NCBI GenBank assembly: GCA_043808545.1
Contig: JAZDEU010000020.1
Location: 1 to 45,862, forward strand
DNA: 45,862 bases
Reading direction: 5' to 3'
From: a bacterium
GTDB taxonomy: Bacteria; Patescibacteriota; Patescibacteriia; JAZDEU01
Shown here piece after piece: positions 4,979 to 13,326 of the stretch. Within the stretch, counting starts at the first letter, position 1. Each line of letters begins with the position of its first letter. The position numbers and the translations under genes were made by a program. Under the pieces are notes generated by a model, which saw nothing but the letters and a program-made list of their open reading frames with translations, was not told where the DNA came from and did not search any database.

Positions 4979-5557
4979 TTATAATTTAGTGATAATTTTG
5001 TCTAACTGTTTGTATAATTCTTTTTCACTCCCGTTATTGTCTATAATAAAATCCGCGGTTTTTCCGATTTTTGGAATCTCGCTCTCTACTTTGCTTTTTT
5101 CGTCTCGCTTGAACTGGGCAAGAGTTTTTTTATTGTCATCGGAATTTTCTCTGCGTTTTTTTATCCTTTCAAGGCGGATATCAATATTAGCCGTTACATA
5201 AATTAGTTTGAAATTTTTTAGTTTTTTAAGATATAGAAGCTCGGGTGATCTTCTTATTCCGTCTATTATGATTAGATTGCGCCTATCTTTTTTTGCATCC
5301 TCGCATAAGACTTTTGAAAATAAATCATTACCAAAAGATTTTCTTAGAGCTTTGGATAAAGTTTGGATATTTTCTCTTGATTGCTCTATATATAATCGAT
5401 CTAAAATATCCCGTAACATTGTTGAAAATCGGTAATAACTCGCGTTATATTTTTTAATTAAGTATTTGCATGATGTCCCTTTGCCTCCAGCGAGTTCTCC
5501 GACGAAACCTAAGATTATTTTTTTATTTTGCATATAAATTTTATTATATCTTGACAT
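4979..5557 (-). CDS. P-loop nucleotide/nucleoside kinase-like protein (CoaE / dNMP-kinase-like)
   Basis: Walker-A-like GELAGGKGT at the N-terminus, IIIDGIR Walker-B-like strand, about 190 aa. Its context next to ndk/folA/thyA suggests a nucleotide kinase. Confidence 0.45.
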   Translation of the reverse strand: MSRYNKIYMQNKKIILGFVGELAGGKGTSCKYLIKKYNASYYRFSTMLRDILDRLYIEQSRENIQTLSKALRKSFGNDLFSKVLCEDAKKDRRNLIIIDGIRRSPELLYLKKLKNFKLIYVTANIDIRLERIKKRRENSDDNKKTLAQFKRDEKSKVESEIPKIGKTADFIIDNNGSEKELYKQLDKIITKL

Positions 5558-5649
5558 TTTTATGAAAATTTGGTTAGATTATAGGATATCTTGCTCTTTA
5601 CAGGGTTTTTCTCACATAACAGTAACCCTTTTTATAGGAGGATAAGGCA

Positions 5650-6093
5650 TTGGGAAAAGAAAGGACACTGGTAATTATTAAGCCCCATATTTTTTTGGAT
5701 AACGACGCGCAAAAAGTTAGTTTAATAATTGGGGATATTTTGCGCAGATATTTAGAACGTAGGTTGTCAGTTGTCGCCGTGAATTCGTTTTGTATGGATC
5801 GTGATGCAGTGGCAGGATTTTATCAAGAACACAATGGGCGGCCGTTCTTTAATGATTTAATAAATGCAATGATTGCAGCTCCAAGTTTTTTCATTGTTTT
5901 AGAAGGAGAATACGCTGTTCAGAAGGTGCGCAGTATCAACGGAGCAACAAATCCATTGGAAGCCGCGCAAGGGACATTGCGGCGGGATTATGGGCGGATG
6001 GAAAAGGGACCGAATAATGCAGTTCACGGATCCGATTCAGTAGAAAGCGCAGAAAGGGAAATAGCATGTTTTTTTCCTGAATTAGCTAGGTAA
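5650..6093 (+). CDS. ndk: nucleoside diphosphate kinase
   Basis: TLVIIKPH and NAVHGSDS (catalytic His) motifs. TTG start 8 nt after a rare perfect AGGAGG. Confidence 0.85.
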   Translation: MGKERTLVIIKPHIFLDNDAQKVSLIIGDILRRYLERRLSVVAVNSFCMDRDAVAGFYQEHNGRPFFNDLINAMIAAPSFFIVLEGEYAVQKVRSINGATNPLEAAQGTLRRDYGRMEKGPNNAVHGSDSVESAEREIACFFPELAR

Positions 6094-6116
6094 TTTTTCC
6101 TCACATTTTTTTATCC

Positions 6117-6155
6117 AAGGGGATTGCTTACAAAAAGCTTTCCCCTTATTTTTTT
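6117..6155 (+). terminator. rho-independent terminator after ndk
   Basis: AAGGGGA ... TCCCCTT stem followed by ATTTTTTT. Confidence 0.55.
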
Positions 6156-6171
6156 ATAATTACGTGTAAAA

Positions 6172-6212
6172 ATCCCCCTAACCCCCTTTTATAAAGGGGG
6201 AACTATGGGGAT
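6172..6212. repeat. nested GC-rich hairpin (ATCCCC..CCCCCTTT tat AAAGGGGG..GGGGAT) abutting the folA stop codon
   Basis: Read directly. Same C5/G5 hairpin style as the elements at 14683-14707 and 33106-33128. Probably a bidirectional terminator. Confidence 0.6.
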
Positions 6213-6713
6213 TTATCTCCCCAATTCCACAAATTTATATTTTAATCCATTATATTCGTGTTTTTCTTCGCTTAATATATTTTTAAATTCAGTGTAATCT
6301 GGGAAGAAAGTGTCTGCGTCTTTTGGGGAATCTTCAACAATCGTTAAATATAATTTATCCGCGCAGGGAATCGCTTGGCGGTAAATTTCCCCTCCTCCGA
6401 TTACGAAAATTTCTGGCGGCGCGCTGATTGTAGAGACGCATTGCAATGCGTCTCTACTAATCTGTATCGCCTCATCAAGCGAATTGCAAATATGGCATCC
6501 TTCGGCTTTATAATTTTTATCTCTTGTAATTATAATATTAACTCTATTTGGGAGCGATTTACCGATTGATTCAAAAGTTTTTCTGCCCATTATTACGGGA
6601 TGATTTTCTGTTATTTTTTTAAAATGCTTTAAATCATCTGGAATATTCCAGATTAGTTTATTATTTTTACCAATAGCATTATTTTCCCCTAAAATACAAA
6701 TAACATTTATCAT
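6213..6713 (-). CDS. folA: dihydrofolate reductase
   Basis: IGKNNKLIWNIPDDLKHFKKIT..PVIMGRKTFESIG and VIGGGEIY are collinear with E. coli FolA. It carries an extra ~10-aa loop (SRDALQCVST) encoded by the palindrome. Confidence 0.85.
   Translation of the reverse strand: MINVICILGENNAIGKNNKLIWNIPDDLKHFKKITENHPVIMGRKTFESIGKSLPNRVNIIITRDKNYKAEGCHICNSLDEAIQISRDALQCVSTISAPPEIFVIGGGEIYRQAIPCADKLYLTIVEDSPKDADTFFPDYTEFKNILSEEKHEYNGLKYKFVELGR
6430..6457. repeat. 28-bp perfect palindrome GTAGAGACGCATTGCAATGCGTCTCTAC embedded in frame in folA
   Basis: Read directly. It has the same 11-bp arms as 1151-1178 but a different 6-bp centre, and is read in a different frame (RDALQCVST). Confidence 0.9.
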
Positions 6714-6801
6714 ATTTTTGTAGAATAGGTATTTTTTAGAATTAGAAATTAAAAATTGTTTTAAAATTTAAAATTTAAAATTTAAAATTCCCCAAGGTGT
6801 T

Positions 6802-7791
6802 TTAGTATCCTCCGATATTTGCGATTTCAGCTTTTATTGCCGGATGCGGGTCATAGCCTTCAAGTGTAAAGTCTTCATAAGTAAAGTCATCAATATTTTT
6901 TATTTCAGGATTTAATTTCATCGTCGGGAACGGTTTAGGTTCGCGGCTTAATTGTTCGTTGATTTGATCAAAATGGTTGCTATAAATATGCACATCTCCG
7001 AATGTGTGGACAAATTCTCCTATTTCAAGCCCGGTGACTTGCGCTACCATCATAAGAAGTAATGCGTAGCTGGCAATATTAAATGGAACACCTAAGAATA
7101 AATCAGCGCTTCGTTGGTACAGACCTAAATTCAATTTTCCATCTGTGACAGCGAATTGATAAGTTGTATGGCAAAAAGGCGGAACTTCATTTTTATTTTT
7201 TTCTGAAGCCATCGCGTAAATAAAATCAGGATTCCACGCGGAAACGACATAAGATTTTCTATAAGGTTTTTCTTTCAATCCTTGAATTACCCATCCTAAT
7301 TGATCTATTTCTCGTCCGTCGCTTGCTGGCCATCTTCTCCACATTCTGCCATAAATCGTTATAAGATCGCCCCATTTTTTTACAAATTCACTGTCAGTCT
7401 GTTCTTCTTTAATCTTATTTATAAAATATTCCTGCGTCATATCTTTTTCAGGATCGTTTTTCACGCAATGTTTATGATATCTTTTCCATGCCCATTCATC
7501 CCATATATGAACATTCTTATCAACTAAATATTTTATATTAGAATCACCTTTTAAAAACCATAATAATTCTTCAATAATTCCTCGGATAAATACTTTTTTT
7601 GTCGTAAGTAAAGGAAATCCTTTTGTTAAATCAAATCTGATCTGTCGTCCGAAAACGCTTCTTATGAACGGCGGTTCTACGCCTCTCGTTGCATATTGTT
7701 TTAATACCTCAGGCGTGAAAAAAAGTTTTTTATCCGAGCCGTTGTCTTTTATGTCTTTTGCTAAGTTTAGATATTGGTATTCTGGGTGCAT
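6802..7791 (-). CDS. thyA: thymidylate synthase (ThyA type)
   Basis: [31 protein letters not shown] and DVHIY motifs. At 329 aa it carries a ~50-aa insert after IWDEWA, at the position of the L. casei-type small domain. Confidence 0.9.
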
Positions 7792-7876
7792 AGGGGGTGG
7801 GAGGTATCAAGTATAAAGTATAAAGTATTATGCTTCTAACCACATAATACATAATACTAAATACATAATACTAATT

Positions 7877-8425
7877 TTATACCTGCGTTTCTTTTCCATT
7901 AGTTGAAACTCTGCCGCCTTGCCATTGTCCGCGATATTGGTTTCCTTCTCCTAGTACTTCGTGAAAAGTTATATGAACAATCCGCGCGCCAAAAGAAATT
8001 TTAATAGGAGACGCGCCTAAATTGCATATACCAAAAGTAAGCTCGCCACAATATCCAGGCTGGACTATGCCGTTGAATAAGCCTAGTCCGGAACGGAACA
8101 TAGTTGTGCGAGGAAAAATAATCCCTGACAATGTAACTGGCAAATTTATTTTCTCAATAGTTTTTATGAGATAATATTTTTTTGATTCAAAAATAAAATA
8201 ATTTTCATTTTCTTTTTTATCTGGATCGTATTTCCCTTTTTGTATCGCAGTAGGAGTTGAACGGTCGTCTATCCCTAAAAATCCTTCGCCTGTTAATTCA
8301 AAAATTTCCCCGAGACGTAAGTCAAAACCAGCGCCTTCCGGATTATTTAGTTCTCTTTCACAGAGATTTTCCACAAGATTCATCTCTTGTACTAATTCGC
8401 GCAGTTTTTTTATTCCTAGTATCAT
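7877..8425 (-). CDS. dcd: dCTP deaminase / dUTPase-superfamily protein
   Basis: GAGFDLRLGEIF and VQPGYCGELTFGICNLG motifs, 182 aa. Confidence 0.7.
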   Translation of the reverse strand: MILGIKKLRELVQEMNLVENLCERELNNPEGAGFDLRLGEIFELTGEGFLGIDDRSTPTAIQKGKYDPDKKENENYFIFESKKYYLIKTIEKINLPVTLSGIIFPRTTMFRSGLGLFNGIVQPGYCGELTFGICNLGASPIKISFGARIVHITFHEVLGEGNQYRGQWQGGRVSTNGKETQV

Positions 8426-8467
8426 AAGGTTAAGTCAAAAGTCCATAAAGTCTAAAGACTTTTAATT

Positions 8468-9025
8468 TTAGATGCTTAAAGCAGAATGGTCAAGATTAAA
8501 AGTTATTTTATTTTCATATTTTCTTACTATAATATTTCTCTTGTTAGCAAGTTCTATAGATTCATTTTCTTCTTCAAATTTTTCTCCTCCGGTTTGAATT
8601 CTATGATATTCATCAAGATATACTATTTCCGCGATGCCTGTATTATTTAATATTTTCATACAGTCATAGCAGGGAAGCAAGACGCAGTAAAGAGTGGCGC
8701 CTCGTAATCTTTTTGTGTCTTGGCAGTTTATTATTCCATTTATTTCCGCGTGAGCTCCTCTGCATCTTTGGATTTTCCCCGTTTCGGAATCCCCGTCTAT
8801 TTTAGCGCATCCTTTTTCTACGCAATGTATATCTCCTGCGGTAGGTCCATTATATCCCATTGATATTATTCTTTTGTTTTCATCTACATAAACAGCTCCT
8901 GTCTCATGAAATTTGCATGCCGCTCTTTTTGAAACTAAAACTGCAAGGTTAATAAAAAATTCATCCCAGCTTAATCGGTTTGTTTTTGGGTTGTCCTTGC
9001 TAACTTTCGGTAAATTTAAAAGCAT
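8468..9025 (-). CDS. deoxycytidylate (dCMP) deaminase
   Basis: Zinc motifs HAEINGI and PCYDCMK; N-terminal WDEFFINLAVLVSKRAAC is typical of ComEB/dCMP deaminases. Confidence 0.8.
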   Translation of the reverse strand: MLLNLPKVSKDNPKTNRLSWDEFFINLAVLVSKRAACKFHETGAVYVDENKRIISMGYNGPTAGDIHCVEKGCAKIDGDSETGKIQRCRGAHAEINGIINCQDTKRLRGATLYCVLLPCYDCMKILNNTGIAEIVYLDEYHRIQTGGEKFEEENESIELANKRNIIVRKYENKITFNLDHSALSI

Positions 9026-9107: not shown

Positions 9108-10175
9108 TTATCCGCCGCCGATAATAGCCACTGATCCTATTCGTCCGTCTTTGCCCAAACATTTTACCCGTCCGGCTCTTGAAAAAAAGTTTTCCAAACG
9201 GTGCGCATAATAGGATGATTTATTATCACAAAAACCAGCCAGTTCATTCAAATCTTTTTTCCATTCATTTATTGAATCTATAATAAAAAGGACATTATTT
9301 CCCATATCGCGGAAATATTCGGTGGCGGTGATTGCTTTATCCATAAATATATCGCGGGAAGCAGATAATTTTGCGCCATTAGTAAAAAAAATTGTTTTTT
9401 CAAGCAAAGATTTTTTTGATTTTAGATCTTTAAATTCAGTAAATTTATTTAAAAATTCAGGCTGGTTTTCTTTACGCAATACGGCAATTATTACATCTGC
9501 TTCTGTCCACTTTGCCAGCTGGCGCTGCATTATAGATTTTTCTATTTTATCTTCCTGATTAAATTTAGAGCAGAAAATGGAATCTAATATTTTTTGTTTG
9601 GAAATCAGTTCCTGCTCGGAAGAATTTTTTTCTTGATAAGGGCGCGGTATTCTAATCGGCCAATTTTGTCTCATAGAAATATCAATGAGTTTATTTCCGT
9701 CATAAATCTGAGCAATCGGTTCCTGAATTATAAAATTGCCGCTTTTGATGGATATTATTTCTCCGTTCATTTCATAAGGTGTTAGGATTTTATGGCTTAT
9801 GGAAGATGTTTCTTTTACTTCTCCTAAAAGATCTCCAGAATTTATTTTTTCGCCTTTAAACATCATAGGCAAGAAATTCCATTTTTCTGCAAGGTTTTGT
9901 TCTTTTTTGTAACGGCTGAAGATTCCGGGACCTAATTTGGTTAAAAAATAATGATTAGTGGAATAAACATTATCATTGGTGGTAAGTCCCGCCGTATTTT
10001 CATAAGCTTGAATATATATTTCGTCTGGAGTAATTTCTATAACTTCGCCGATCAATTTTCTATATCCCAGTTGTACTATTTCGTATAATTTCGCAGATTT
10101 TAAATTTTTCGTTGTTATAAAACTTTGATTGATAAAAGAAATTTTTCCAACATTTTGAGAATCGGCATAAGACAT
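9108..10175 (-). CDS. degenerate, truncated V/A-type ATPase catalytic (A) subunit homolog lacking Walker A
   Basis: Collinear with A subunits: GEVIEI..IQAYENTAGL, LGPG, the A-specific bulge with HKIL.P, WPIR.PRPY, QLAKW..ADV, ATEYFRDMG, FSRAGRV...GSVAIIGGG. GPFGSGKT is replaced by SKFNQEDK, and the protein stops about 200 aa early. Confidence 0.6.
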   Translation of the reverse strand: MSYADSQNVGKISFINQSFITTKNLKSAKLYEIVQLGYRKLIGEVIEITPDEIYIQAYENTAGLTTNDNVYSTNHYFLTKLGPGIFSRYKKEQNLAEKWNFLPMMFKGEKINSGDLLGEVKETSSISHKILTPYEMNGEIISIKSGNFIIQEPIAQIYDGNKLIDISMRQNWPIRIPRPYQEKNSSEQELISKQKILDSIFCSKFNQEDKIEKSIMQRQLAKWTEADVIIAVLRKENQPEFLNKFTEFKDLKSKKSLLEKTIFFTNGAKLSASRDIFMDKAITATEYFRDMGNNVLFIIDSINEWKKDLNELAGFCDNKSSYYAHRLENFFSRAGRVKCLGKDGRIGSVAIIGGG

Positions 10176-10686
10176 ATAGTTAAGAATATCATATACTGGT
10201 TTGGTGTCAATGAGGCGCGGCTGTTTTTTTGAAGGTTAAGTATTCTCTAATCGTAAGAAGATACTATAAATGGCAGTATGCTATCACGATAAATTTTTGA
10301 TTTATTTTTAAAAAATTTTCTATTTTTATTAAATTCAAATCGCTTTTTATTTTTACTTTTATCTTTTTAATCTCCTTTTAAATAATTTTACTTTTGCTTT
10401 TTGCATCTCTTCCGCAAATTCATTATCGCTTTTTTCTTTCGCTATTTTTTCCATTCCTTCAAAACTAAAATTTTCTAATTATGCTTCCATTTTTTGATTC
10501 CGCTAACGCGTTATCATTTGAATGCATTGATCTGGATTTCGGTAGAACCCGTTTCCTCGGATAGTATCATCTTGCATTAGAGAAGACTATCCCTTTACAA
10601 ATAGCCTGAATTTGATATAATATAAGCATACTCGTCATCCTGAACTTTGCGAAGGATCTCATAAATTATAATAAATTTACATCATT

Positions 10687-13208: not shown

Positions 13209-13326
13209 CAGAAAACCCTGGCAAAAGCCGGGGTCAGAAAACTCGGTAGTCCTGTTAAGGGCTTTCCCACTGGGATTTGTCCCGAGCATCTAGTTTCTAA
13301 AAGAATAATATCATATATATAAATGT

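Follow-up and report, generated by a model that had tools for sequence, protein, structure and literature searches.

A truncated V/A-ATPase subunit A homolog without a P-loop is kept under purifying selection in a small lineage of Patescibacteriota

The 45,862-nucleotide (nt) stretch of DNA analysed here (the window; contig JAZDEU010000020.1 of assembly GCA_043808545.1) comes from a patescibacterium whose genome, with 0.88 Mb on 71 contigs at 82% completeness, is typical of a candidate-phyla-radiation (CPR) bacterium. It encodes a protein of 355 amino acids (aa), P0001, which is a truncated homolog of the catalytic A subunit of V/A-type ATPases and is hereafter called A-like. The protein has lost the glycine-rich P-loop, the catalytic glutamate and the entire C-terminal domain. 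Nevertheless, its gene is a selected gene and not a pseudogene. Judging from its sequence and that of its orthologs, we propose that A-like is probably an exapted, cytoplasmic and non-catalytic pseudo-ATPase.

An earlier note on this DNA, made from the sequence alone, had described an intact frame of 355 codons at this place, collinear with V/A-type A subunits. The coordinates, start and stop are correct (Table 1), and Pfam, NCBIfam, PDB and AlphaFold/Foldseek agree on the collinearity. The motifs it quoted (GEVIEI, IQAYENTAGL, HKILTP, WPIRIPRPY, QLAKW..ADV, ATEYFRDMG and FSRAGRV..GSVAIIGGG) are all present in the translation. Its argument that such a frame is unlikely to arise by chance holds as well. 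At the 33-34% GC of the window, a stop should occur once in about 13 codons, and the probability of 355 open codons calculated from base composition is ~1e-12.

Homology of P0001 to V/A-ATPase subunit A is confirmed by profile, PDB-sequence and fold searches, all of which could have exposed the resemblance noticed earlier as spurious. The A-specific bulge domain matches PF16886 with 78 bits against a cut-off of 25 (E 4.5e-22), the ß-barrel matches PF02874 with 30.1 bits against 20.9, and part of the nucleotide-binding domain matches PF00006 with 46 bits (E 6e-12), above the gathering score. The bulge is the module closest to canonical A subunits in conservation. Both NCBIfam models of subunit A recognise the protein, TIGR01043 with an E-value of 5.7e-74 over model positions 113-387 of 580 and NF003220 with 4e-73, but the whole-protein scores (249.5 and 246.8 bits) stay under the curated cut-offs of 972 and 470. 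The B subunit model NF003235 gives a weak match (E 8e-6; 24.8 bits against a cut-off of 349), and with a bulge present and the C-terminal domain absent, P0001 is not a member of the B subunits. Matches to F1-like, FliI and SctN models are likewise weak, with E-values of 1e-5 to 1e-11 far under the cut-offs. The best solved relative in the PDB sequence search is subunit A of Pyrococcus horikoshii (1VDZ, E 1e-62), and identity to canonical A subunits is 33-41% over 355 aa. An AlphaFold model based on a 54-sequence alignment reached a mean predicted local distance difference test (pLDDT) score of 85 and a predicted template modelling (pTM) score of 0.86. pLDDT falls below 50 solely at aa 202-208, which correspond to the former P-loop. 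The top Foldseek matches of this model are all V/A A subunits, with E 1e-33 and a TM-score (TMq) of ~0.75 for Enterococcus hirae A (cf. 3VR6). PADLOC and PHROG returned no match to P0001, and a defence or phage origin was rejected on this basis.

Compared with the catalytic subunits of known structure (1VDZ, 3VR6), A-like has the same order of ß-barrel, bulge and nucleotide-binding core, the same fold and the shared WPxRxPRP motif. In contrast to them, it ends at the equivalent of P. horikoshii residue 391 of 588 and is devoid of the C-terminal domain, the glycine-rich P-loop, the catalytic glutamate and the adenine loop, and it stands without partner subunits outside any ATPase operon. Beyond GSVAIIGG nothing is left, neither the final strands of the sheet nor any of the C-terminal domain. 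PF22919, which describes this helical domain, is present in all full-length matches and has no match in P0001. This bears out the earlier claim that the protein stops about 200 aa early.

The losses were mapped in an alignment of the six members of the A-like family with 48 canonical A subunits, in which 136 columns of the covered region are at least 95% conserved in the canonical set. All six members keep 46 of these columns, 30 are kept in some, and 60 are changed or deleted throughout the family. The family-wide changes are clustered in Walker A, GERGNEM, STSRWAEALRE, the EMPGEEGYP loop, the DGIQRPL...G segment and TGQR, the last of which reads SKQK. At Walker A, the canonical KGGTACIPGPFGSGKT is replaced by SKFN------QEDKIEKS. 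The octamer GPFGSGKT thus aligns with QEDKIEKS and not with SKFNQEDK, as had been proposed. The loss itself stands, since the glycine-rich turn is gone and every glycine of GxxxxGK[ST] is missing in all six members, but K213 and S214 of GK[ST] are kept. A similar correction applies to the second catalytic motif, where GCGERGNEM becomes ---LRKENQ. The three residues GCG are deleted and the catalytic glutamate is Leu, Met or Val at position 233 in all six proteins, but the following arginine is retained as R234. An alternative HMMER alignment places the catalytic glutamate inside the GCG gap.

Besides the shortening at these two motifs, the whole family has lost ~23-30 aa from the DGIQRPL...G segment that follows the ß-barrel, 6 aa from the EMPGEEGYP loop and a single residue elsewhere, which makes five internal deletions, all in frame. 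The adenine-pocket loop is missing too. What persists is the framework, including WPIRIPRPY, QLAKW, AEYFRDMG, RAGRV, the Walker B aspartate (D300) and R274, and the residues K213, S214, R234, R274 and D300 are invariant in the family. P0001 thus has two of the seven features that define subunit A and lacks five, and should therefore not be filed as an ATP synthase subunit. From the established mechanism of the family we infer that it can neither hydrolyse ATP nor couple to the central stalk. With the elements for ATP binding, ATP splitting and rotor contact lost, it cannot be an ATPase or a motor and would have to act by binding, via retained or remodelled surfaces.

A word-index search of 5.8e9 clusters recovered five further orthologs of 353-374 aa with 60-79% identity, from two NCBI metagenome-assembled genomes and three Logan assemblies, giving six assemblies from different samples in all. 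Counted from the conserved start, all six proteins have 353-357 aa, and the 374-aa call results from an upstream ATG in one of them. All of them are intact and collinear, share their indels and terminate alike in ...AIIGG(E)(E). Ratios of nonsynonymous to synonymous substitution (dN/dS, Nei-Gojobori) are 0.11-0.23 in all 15 pairs, at dS values of 0.37-2.2. Each of the three modules is constrained, with dN/dS of 0.13-0.37 in the barrel, 0.17-0.39 in the bulge and 0.08-0.19, the lowest, in the nucleotide-binding core. The neighbouring dCMP deaminase has a dN/dS of 0.135 in the closest pair. Identity between the genomes is 82-87% for F1 alpha and 60-74% for A-like; A-like therefore evolves faster than a top-conserved housekeeping protein, yet is clearly constrained. 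The known total amounts to six sequences among ~15 billion proteins, and NCBI annotates two of the orthologs as ‘hypothetical protein’.

These data speak to the possibility that the gene is nothing but a pseudogene, left over from a V/A operon now deleted and open by luck or owing to a recent loss. The truncation, the five internal deletions and the loss of all catalytic motifs do resemble decay, and the ‘hypothetical protein’ labels, the absence of the gene from one genome of the order and the very long stem branch of the family described below would fit as well. However, decay would hardly leave six open copies, separated by dS of ~0.4 to more than 2, with an identical end residue, a dN/dS close to that of the dCMP deaminase, a conserved promoter and a frame whose length defies chance. 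We consider a pseudogene very improbable. The orthologs riddled with stops or frameshifts that such a history predicts did not appear, as the five additional copies are intact and stop at the same position. The earlier suggestion of a retained, repurposed and non-catalytic protein thus remains the best reading of the intact orthologs and their dN/dS.

The source is a metagenome-assembled genome in 71 contigs, and a full-length A subunit could in principle be concealed by errors in sequencing or assembly, by a split of the gene or by recoding of its stop. The probability of such an artefact is close to nil. The same truncated architecture recurs in all six independent samples, the frame closes with a TAA stop 82 bp ahead of the next gene, and the internal deletions are in frame and common to all copies. 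Moreover, the missing C-terminal half (residues 390-582 of the subunit A of a class relative) yielded only noise, with E-values of at least 0.03, in the four species genomes that make up the GTDB family and order. These are the window's own genome (G000) and G001-G003, all 77-88% complete. The absence of the C-terminal half from them speaks against a split gene.

The A-like gene is found in three of these four genomes and is absent from G003; a full-length A subunit occurs in none. We searched for partner subunits with the G-I-K-E-C-F-A-B-D operon of the class relative (G117, L021). tblastn with the eight partners G, I, K, E, C, F, B and D detected none of them in the whole assembly of the window's genome, where the operon as a whole matched only the A-like open reading frame (ORF) and the F1 alpha gene. 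The earlier observation that no B, D, E, I or K genes lie nearby thus extends to the entire assembly. Across G000-G003, the PF00006 matches include no V-type B subunit, and PF01496 (subunit I) found nothing above cut-off, with sub-threshold noise in G003 alone. A hidden V/A operon was rejected on the strength of the eight partner searches together with the PF01496 search. Hence, A-like does not co-occur with V/A partner subunits in the order.

Instead, the lineage appears to use an F-type enzyme. The PF00006 search identified F1 alpha in G000, G001 and G002, and a second, 475-aa match in G002 is read as F1 beta because gamma-like and epsilon-like-sized ORFs flank it. In the window's genome, judged by eye, ORFs resembling a, c and b stand in this order on contig C62 and are followed by a YdjM-like insert and alpha; the remainder of the contig holds unrelated genes. 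Gamma, beta and epsilon of the F-type enzyme were not found in this assembly. The A-like gene lies on contig C20, the window, and is never near the atp operon.

This raises the question whether A-like could still be part of a rotary ATPase, either as a stator or crown piece on the unusual F-type enzyme of the lineage, with its N-terminally extended alpha subunit, or within a V/A enzyme encoded in the unassembled 12-23% of the genomes. Relative to canonical A subunits, the best-preserved parts are the bulge and the crown-forming ß-barrel, A-like and F-type alpha occur together in G000, G001 and G002 and are both absent from G003, and the assemblies are incomplete. Yet it is unlikely that all eight partners were missed in three independent assemblies, and V/A subunits are found in none of the four genomes. 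A-like is encoded apart from the atp operon, the domain that would contact the central stalk is gone, and we know of no F-type complex that uses an A-type subunit. We therefore regard a rotary role as improbable, if somewhat less so than decay.

Some features of the F-type genes are worth recording in their own right. On C62 (L029 5166-15252; L001) the operon is broken up, and a DUF3800 gene and four unrelated ORFs follow alpha. In G002 an extra ORF of 176 aa lies between alpha and the gamma-like ORF. The F1 alpha proteins of the order (L001 775-2562; L023; L024) have 595-598 aa, with a conserved N-terminal extension of ~115 aa ahead of the ß-barrel that has no Pfam match and may be a fused short delta-like piece. 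The window itself contains a full-length match to the Rfam DUF3800-II RNA on the minus strand (13232-13297; 65 bits against a gathering score of 43), in the same genome as the DUF3800 protein gene that directly follows F1 alpha on C62.

Beyond the order, an even sample of 401 class genomes contains A subunits in 28 others (~7%), which are 35-41% identical to A-like. The open frames span 580-650 aa in 27 of them, and the remaining one is a 390-aa fragment; no comparably truncated A subunit was found outside the order in this sample. Among 1.84e9 representatives searched exhaustively with phmmer, there was one truncated cluster (clustering at 50% identity), followed by ordinary or intein-bearing A subunits. 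Neither survey revealed more distant truncated relatives. Phylogenetic analysis of 67 sequences unites the truncated proteins in one clade (support 100), on a stem of ~3.3 substitutions per site that the tree does not attach at any firm point. Constraining this clade to join the A subunits of the class itself, which include the closest full-length matches P0008 and P0009, gave the best likelihood found (+5.75 log-likelihood units; approximately unbiased test p-AU 0.70). This is consistent with descent of the A-like gene from a V/A ATPase of the same class. The V/A complexes of CPR bacteria have themselves been attributed to horizontal acquisition (bioRxiv 10.1101/2023.04.11.536006).

We suggest the following scenario. 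The ancestor of the order would have lost a V/A-type ATPase like that still encoded by ~7% of the class genomes, and only the 5' 60% of the A subunit gene would have survived the loss. A burst of change may have followed before the surviving fragment came under purifying selection, with the ß-barrel, the bulge and the shortened Rossmann core retained as three folded modules.

Many of the best representative matches (P0122-P0148) are intein-bearing A subunits of ~1000-1130 aa, and homology to them breaks at query positions 201/212, the former P-loop. The A-like family also lacks GCG at what we take to be the yeast-type intein site, VG|CGERGNE. A scar of imprecise intein deletion was nevertheless rejected as highly unlikely, given that the K213-S214 junction is seamless and that the 28 class A subunits are all free of inteins. 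We judge the overlap a coincidence, because inteins target conserved loops that any dead enzyme would lose.

What, then, might A-like do? Its only constant genomic companion is a cluster of genes led by deoxycytidine monophosphate (dCMP) deaminase for the supply of deoxyuridine and deoxythymidine monophosphate (dUMP and dTMP; Table 1). In the window, NDK lies on the opposite strand, after the dihydrofolate reductase (DHFR) gene and before the dNMP-kinase-like gene, and a divergent HlyD-like gene is found upstream of the A-like gene, so that both neighbours named earlier, dCMP deaminase and the HlyD-like gene, are verified. In G002 the order is A-like, dCMP deaminase, ThyX, dNMP kinase, dUTPase and Tmk. 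L007 has A-like, a 94-aa gene on the opposite strand and a dCMP deaminase 90% identical to that of the window. In G001, the contig ends with A-like, a 143-aa gene and a Tmk-like gene, and an 86%-identical contig copy continues with dCMP deaminase, ThyX, a 145-aa gene, dNMP kinase, dUTPase and Tmk. The two copies of the 143-aa/Tmk-like locus in G001 (C106, L006 1725-2756; C24, L032 4802-5842) stem either from a duplication or from the binning of two related strains, which limits what gene order in G001 can tell. In L005 and L008 the contig ends right after the A-like gene. Thus, the A-like gene lies just upstream of a dTMP cluster led by dCMP deaminase in four of four assessable contexts. On its upstream side the neighbours differ in every case (HlyD-like, YkuD, HEPN/nucleotidyltransferase, small ORFs).

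Table 1. Features of the A-like gene, its product and the downstream gene cluster in the window.
Feature	Position	Strand	Details
Truncated, P-loop-less V/A-ATPase subunit A homolog (P0001, A-like)	9108..10175	minus	355 codons, ATG start, TAA stop
N-terminal ß-barrel, aa 9-81	9933..10151	minus	PF02874 6.8e-7; ß-strands 9-81 in model, pLDDT >90
A-specific bulge / barrel-sandwich domain, aa 96-175	9651..9890	minus	PF16886 4.5e-22; pLDDT 91-97
Truncated nucleotide-binding-domain core, aa 176-355	9111..9650	minus	PF00006 positions 26-168 of 213 only; ends after strand GSVAIIGG
Walker A remnant, aa 202-214, CSKFNQEDKIEKS	9534..9572	minus	acidic stretch replaces glycine-rich turn after ~6-aa deletion
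GCGERGNEM remnant, aa 232-238, VLRKENQ	9462..9482	minus	from alignments
Sigma-70-type promoter-like site, TTGACA-16 nt-TATTCT, TG before second hexamer	10183..10210	minus	ends 7 nt before ATG
dCMP deaminase, 82 bp downstream of A-like stop	8468..9025	minus	PF00383 1.9e-19; phrog_174
dCTP deaminase-like (DCD/dUTPase fold)	7877..8425	minus	PF22769 2.7e-21
Thymidylate synthase ThyA	6802..7791	minus	PF00303 8.9e-99
Dihydrofolate reductase (DHFR)	6213..6713	minus	PF00186 4.9e-52
dNMP-kinase-like P-loop kinase	4979..5557	minus	PF13207/PF13238; phrog_139 7.6e-20

The clusters behind the A-like gene are of two non-orthologous types, ThyA, DHFR and DCD in the window and ThyX, dUTPase and Tmk in the sister genera. 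The only gene common to both is the dNMP-kinase-like gene (window 4979-9025 compared with L004 7824-11377 and L032 82-4523). Window-type and G002-type deaminases are just 37% identical (185 aa and 173 aa as called), compared with 74% for the A-like proteins. This looks, from the sequences at hand, like an in-situ replacement of the cluster behind a constant A-like gene. The link to the dTMP pathway is suggestive and the only clue to function, and the constancy of this companion is why we tentatively put forward, as the likeliest specific function though one less probable than not, that A-like may assist the supply of pyrimidine deoxynucleotides in an accessory, scaffolding or regulatory capacity. 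The narrower version, in which A-like would be an accessory subunit of thymidylate supply (a scaffold or allosteric sensor) that has stayed attached to the cluster despite the non-orthologous swap, is more doubtful still. In G003, searches found no A-like gene, no dCMP deaminase and no F1 subunit. The V/A operon of the class relative (G117, L021) is flanked not by dTMP genes but by CDP-alcohol transferase, exporter, OTCase and ThrRS genes. A historical adjacency of V/A operon and dTMP genes is thus without support in the one full operon context examined.

Upstream of the A-like gene, a sigma-70-type motif TTGACA-16-TGATATTCT occurs with identical spacing in five of the six ortholog upstream regions (window, L005, L006, L007 and L008), in four of the five at a distance of 7-11 nt from the ATG. 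The G002 region retains just a -10-like TATACT at that distance, inside the 3' end of the YkuD gene, which ends 5 nt before the A-like start. The A-like gene therefore appears to be transcribed from a conserved promoter of its own, and its mRNA is probably leaderless or has a very short leader. In L007 the A-like gene is followed by a hairpin with a T-run and then by the opposite-strand gene. A promoter-like intergenic element of 94 nt precedes the dCMP deaminase in G002 (L004 7718-7810) and G001 (L032 4579-4670), where it is 90% identical. The conservation of this element across two genera exceeds that of the adjoining coding DNA (79-87%), and it contains TTGACG, a short hairpin (AACCTT..AAGGTT) and a T-run. 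Rfam has no match near the A-like gene in the window at the gathering threshold, nor in L004, L007 and L032 at E-values up to 0.1; the idea of a riboswitch or known RNA beside the A-like gene or its orthologs was dropped on the strength of these searches.

Several observations weigh against the reading of A-like as an exapted pseudo-ATPase with a link to deoxynucleotide supply. The A-like gene seems to be a transcription unit of its own, and with its own promoter, the hairpin and opposite-strand gene in L007 and the promoter-like element before the deaminase, an operon with the dTMP genes is not established. Since all six sequences come from one narrow lineage, the conserved synteny may be inherited rather than selected. 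G003 lacks the F-type ATPase as well, so presence and absence cannot separate a link to dTMP from a link to the ATP synthase. With genomes that are 77-88% complete, the case that partner genes are lacking is a strong one without being absolute. Finally, the retained K213, S214, R234, R274 and D300 allow for a residual phosphate or ligand site.

This last point leads to a further possibility, which is compatible with a non-catalytic pseudo-ATPase: the remodelled pocket may have become a new ligand site, making A-like a small-molecule sensor or weak enzyme for a deoxynucleotide or phosphate compound. The five invariant residues are those that touch phosphate in canonical subunits, the P-loop remnant has a dN/dS of 0.07-0.11 in the closer pairs, among the lowest, and new conserved cysteines line the former pocket (C202 in five of six members, C316 in all six). 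The neighbouring genes, moreover, make and interconvert dCMP, dUMP and dTMP. However, A-like has neither the glycine-rich turn nor the adenine-pocket loop, its C-terminal aromatic residues are missing as well, and phosphates would be repelled by the acidic stretch QEDKxE. In P0007, the most divergent ortholog, the loop reads SSNPAEKS, and model confidence is low at exactly this place. A ligand site of this kind is therefore conceivable but not what we would expect.

How does A-like compare with known derivatives of rotary ATPases? V/A subunit B became non-catalytic when its Walker A loop was truncated, with the fold and Walker B kept (bioRxiv 10.64898/2026.10.01.756066). A-like shows the same kind of P-loop truncation, a second independent time and in the A subunit. 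Subunit B differs in that it keeps full nucleotide-binding and C-terminal domains and has no bulge, and it works only in the A3B3 hexamer beside its operon partners, whereas A-like stands alone. Homologs of rotary-ATPase alpha and beta subunits do another job in the gliding motor of Mycoplasma mobile (bioRxiv 10.1101/2021.04.06.438750). With these and with the export ATPases FliI and SctN, A-like would share the recruitment to another job away from the atp operon. In contrast to A-like, they keep Walker A, the C-terminal domain and ATP hydrolysis and form hexamers with partners.

Dead paralogs of P-loop ATPases serve elsewhere as scaffolds or regulators, with a conserved fold, an ablated active site and purifying selection. 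A-like resembles such pseudoenzymes in all three respects: its catalytic residues are lost, its fold is kept and selection acts on it. Our literature searches turned up neither a truncated A subunit that stands alone nor a pseudoenzyme derived from subunit A.

Catalytic subunits of rotary ATPases are among the most conserved proteins and normally occur only inside complexes. Although its rarity limits the reach of the finding, the A-like family offers a natural experiment, in which a single subunit at 60% of its length, without catalysis or partners, is selected across an order-level lineage. It implies that the ß-barrel, the bulge and half a Rossmann core can exist on their own, and at 355 aa the protein should be easy to express and so to probe for what a fragment of this kind binds. 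If the link to dTMP is true, A-like would represent an unrecognised layer of control over deoxynucleotide supply in CPR bacteria, and the first A subunit of a V/A-ATPase to have been exapted into nucleotide metabolism.

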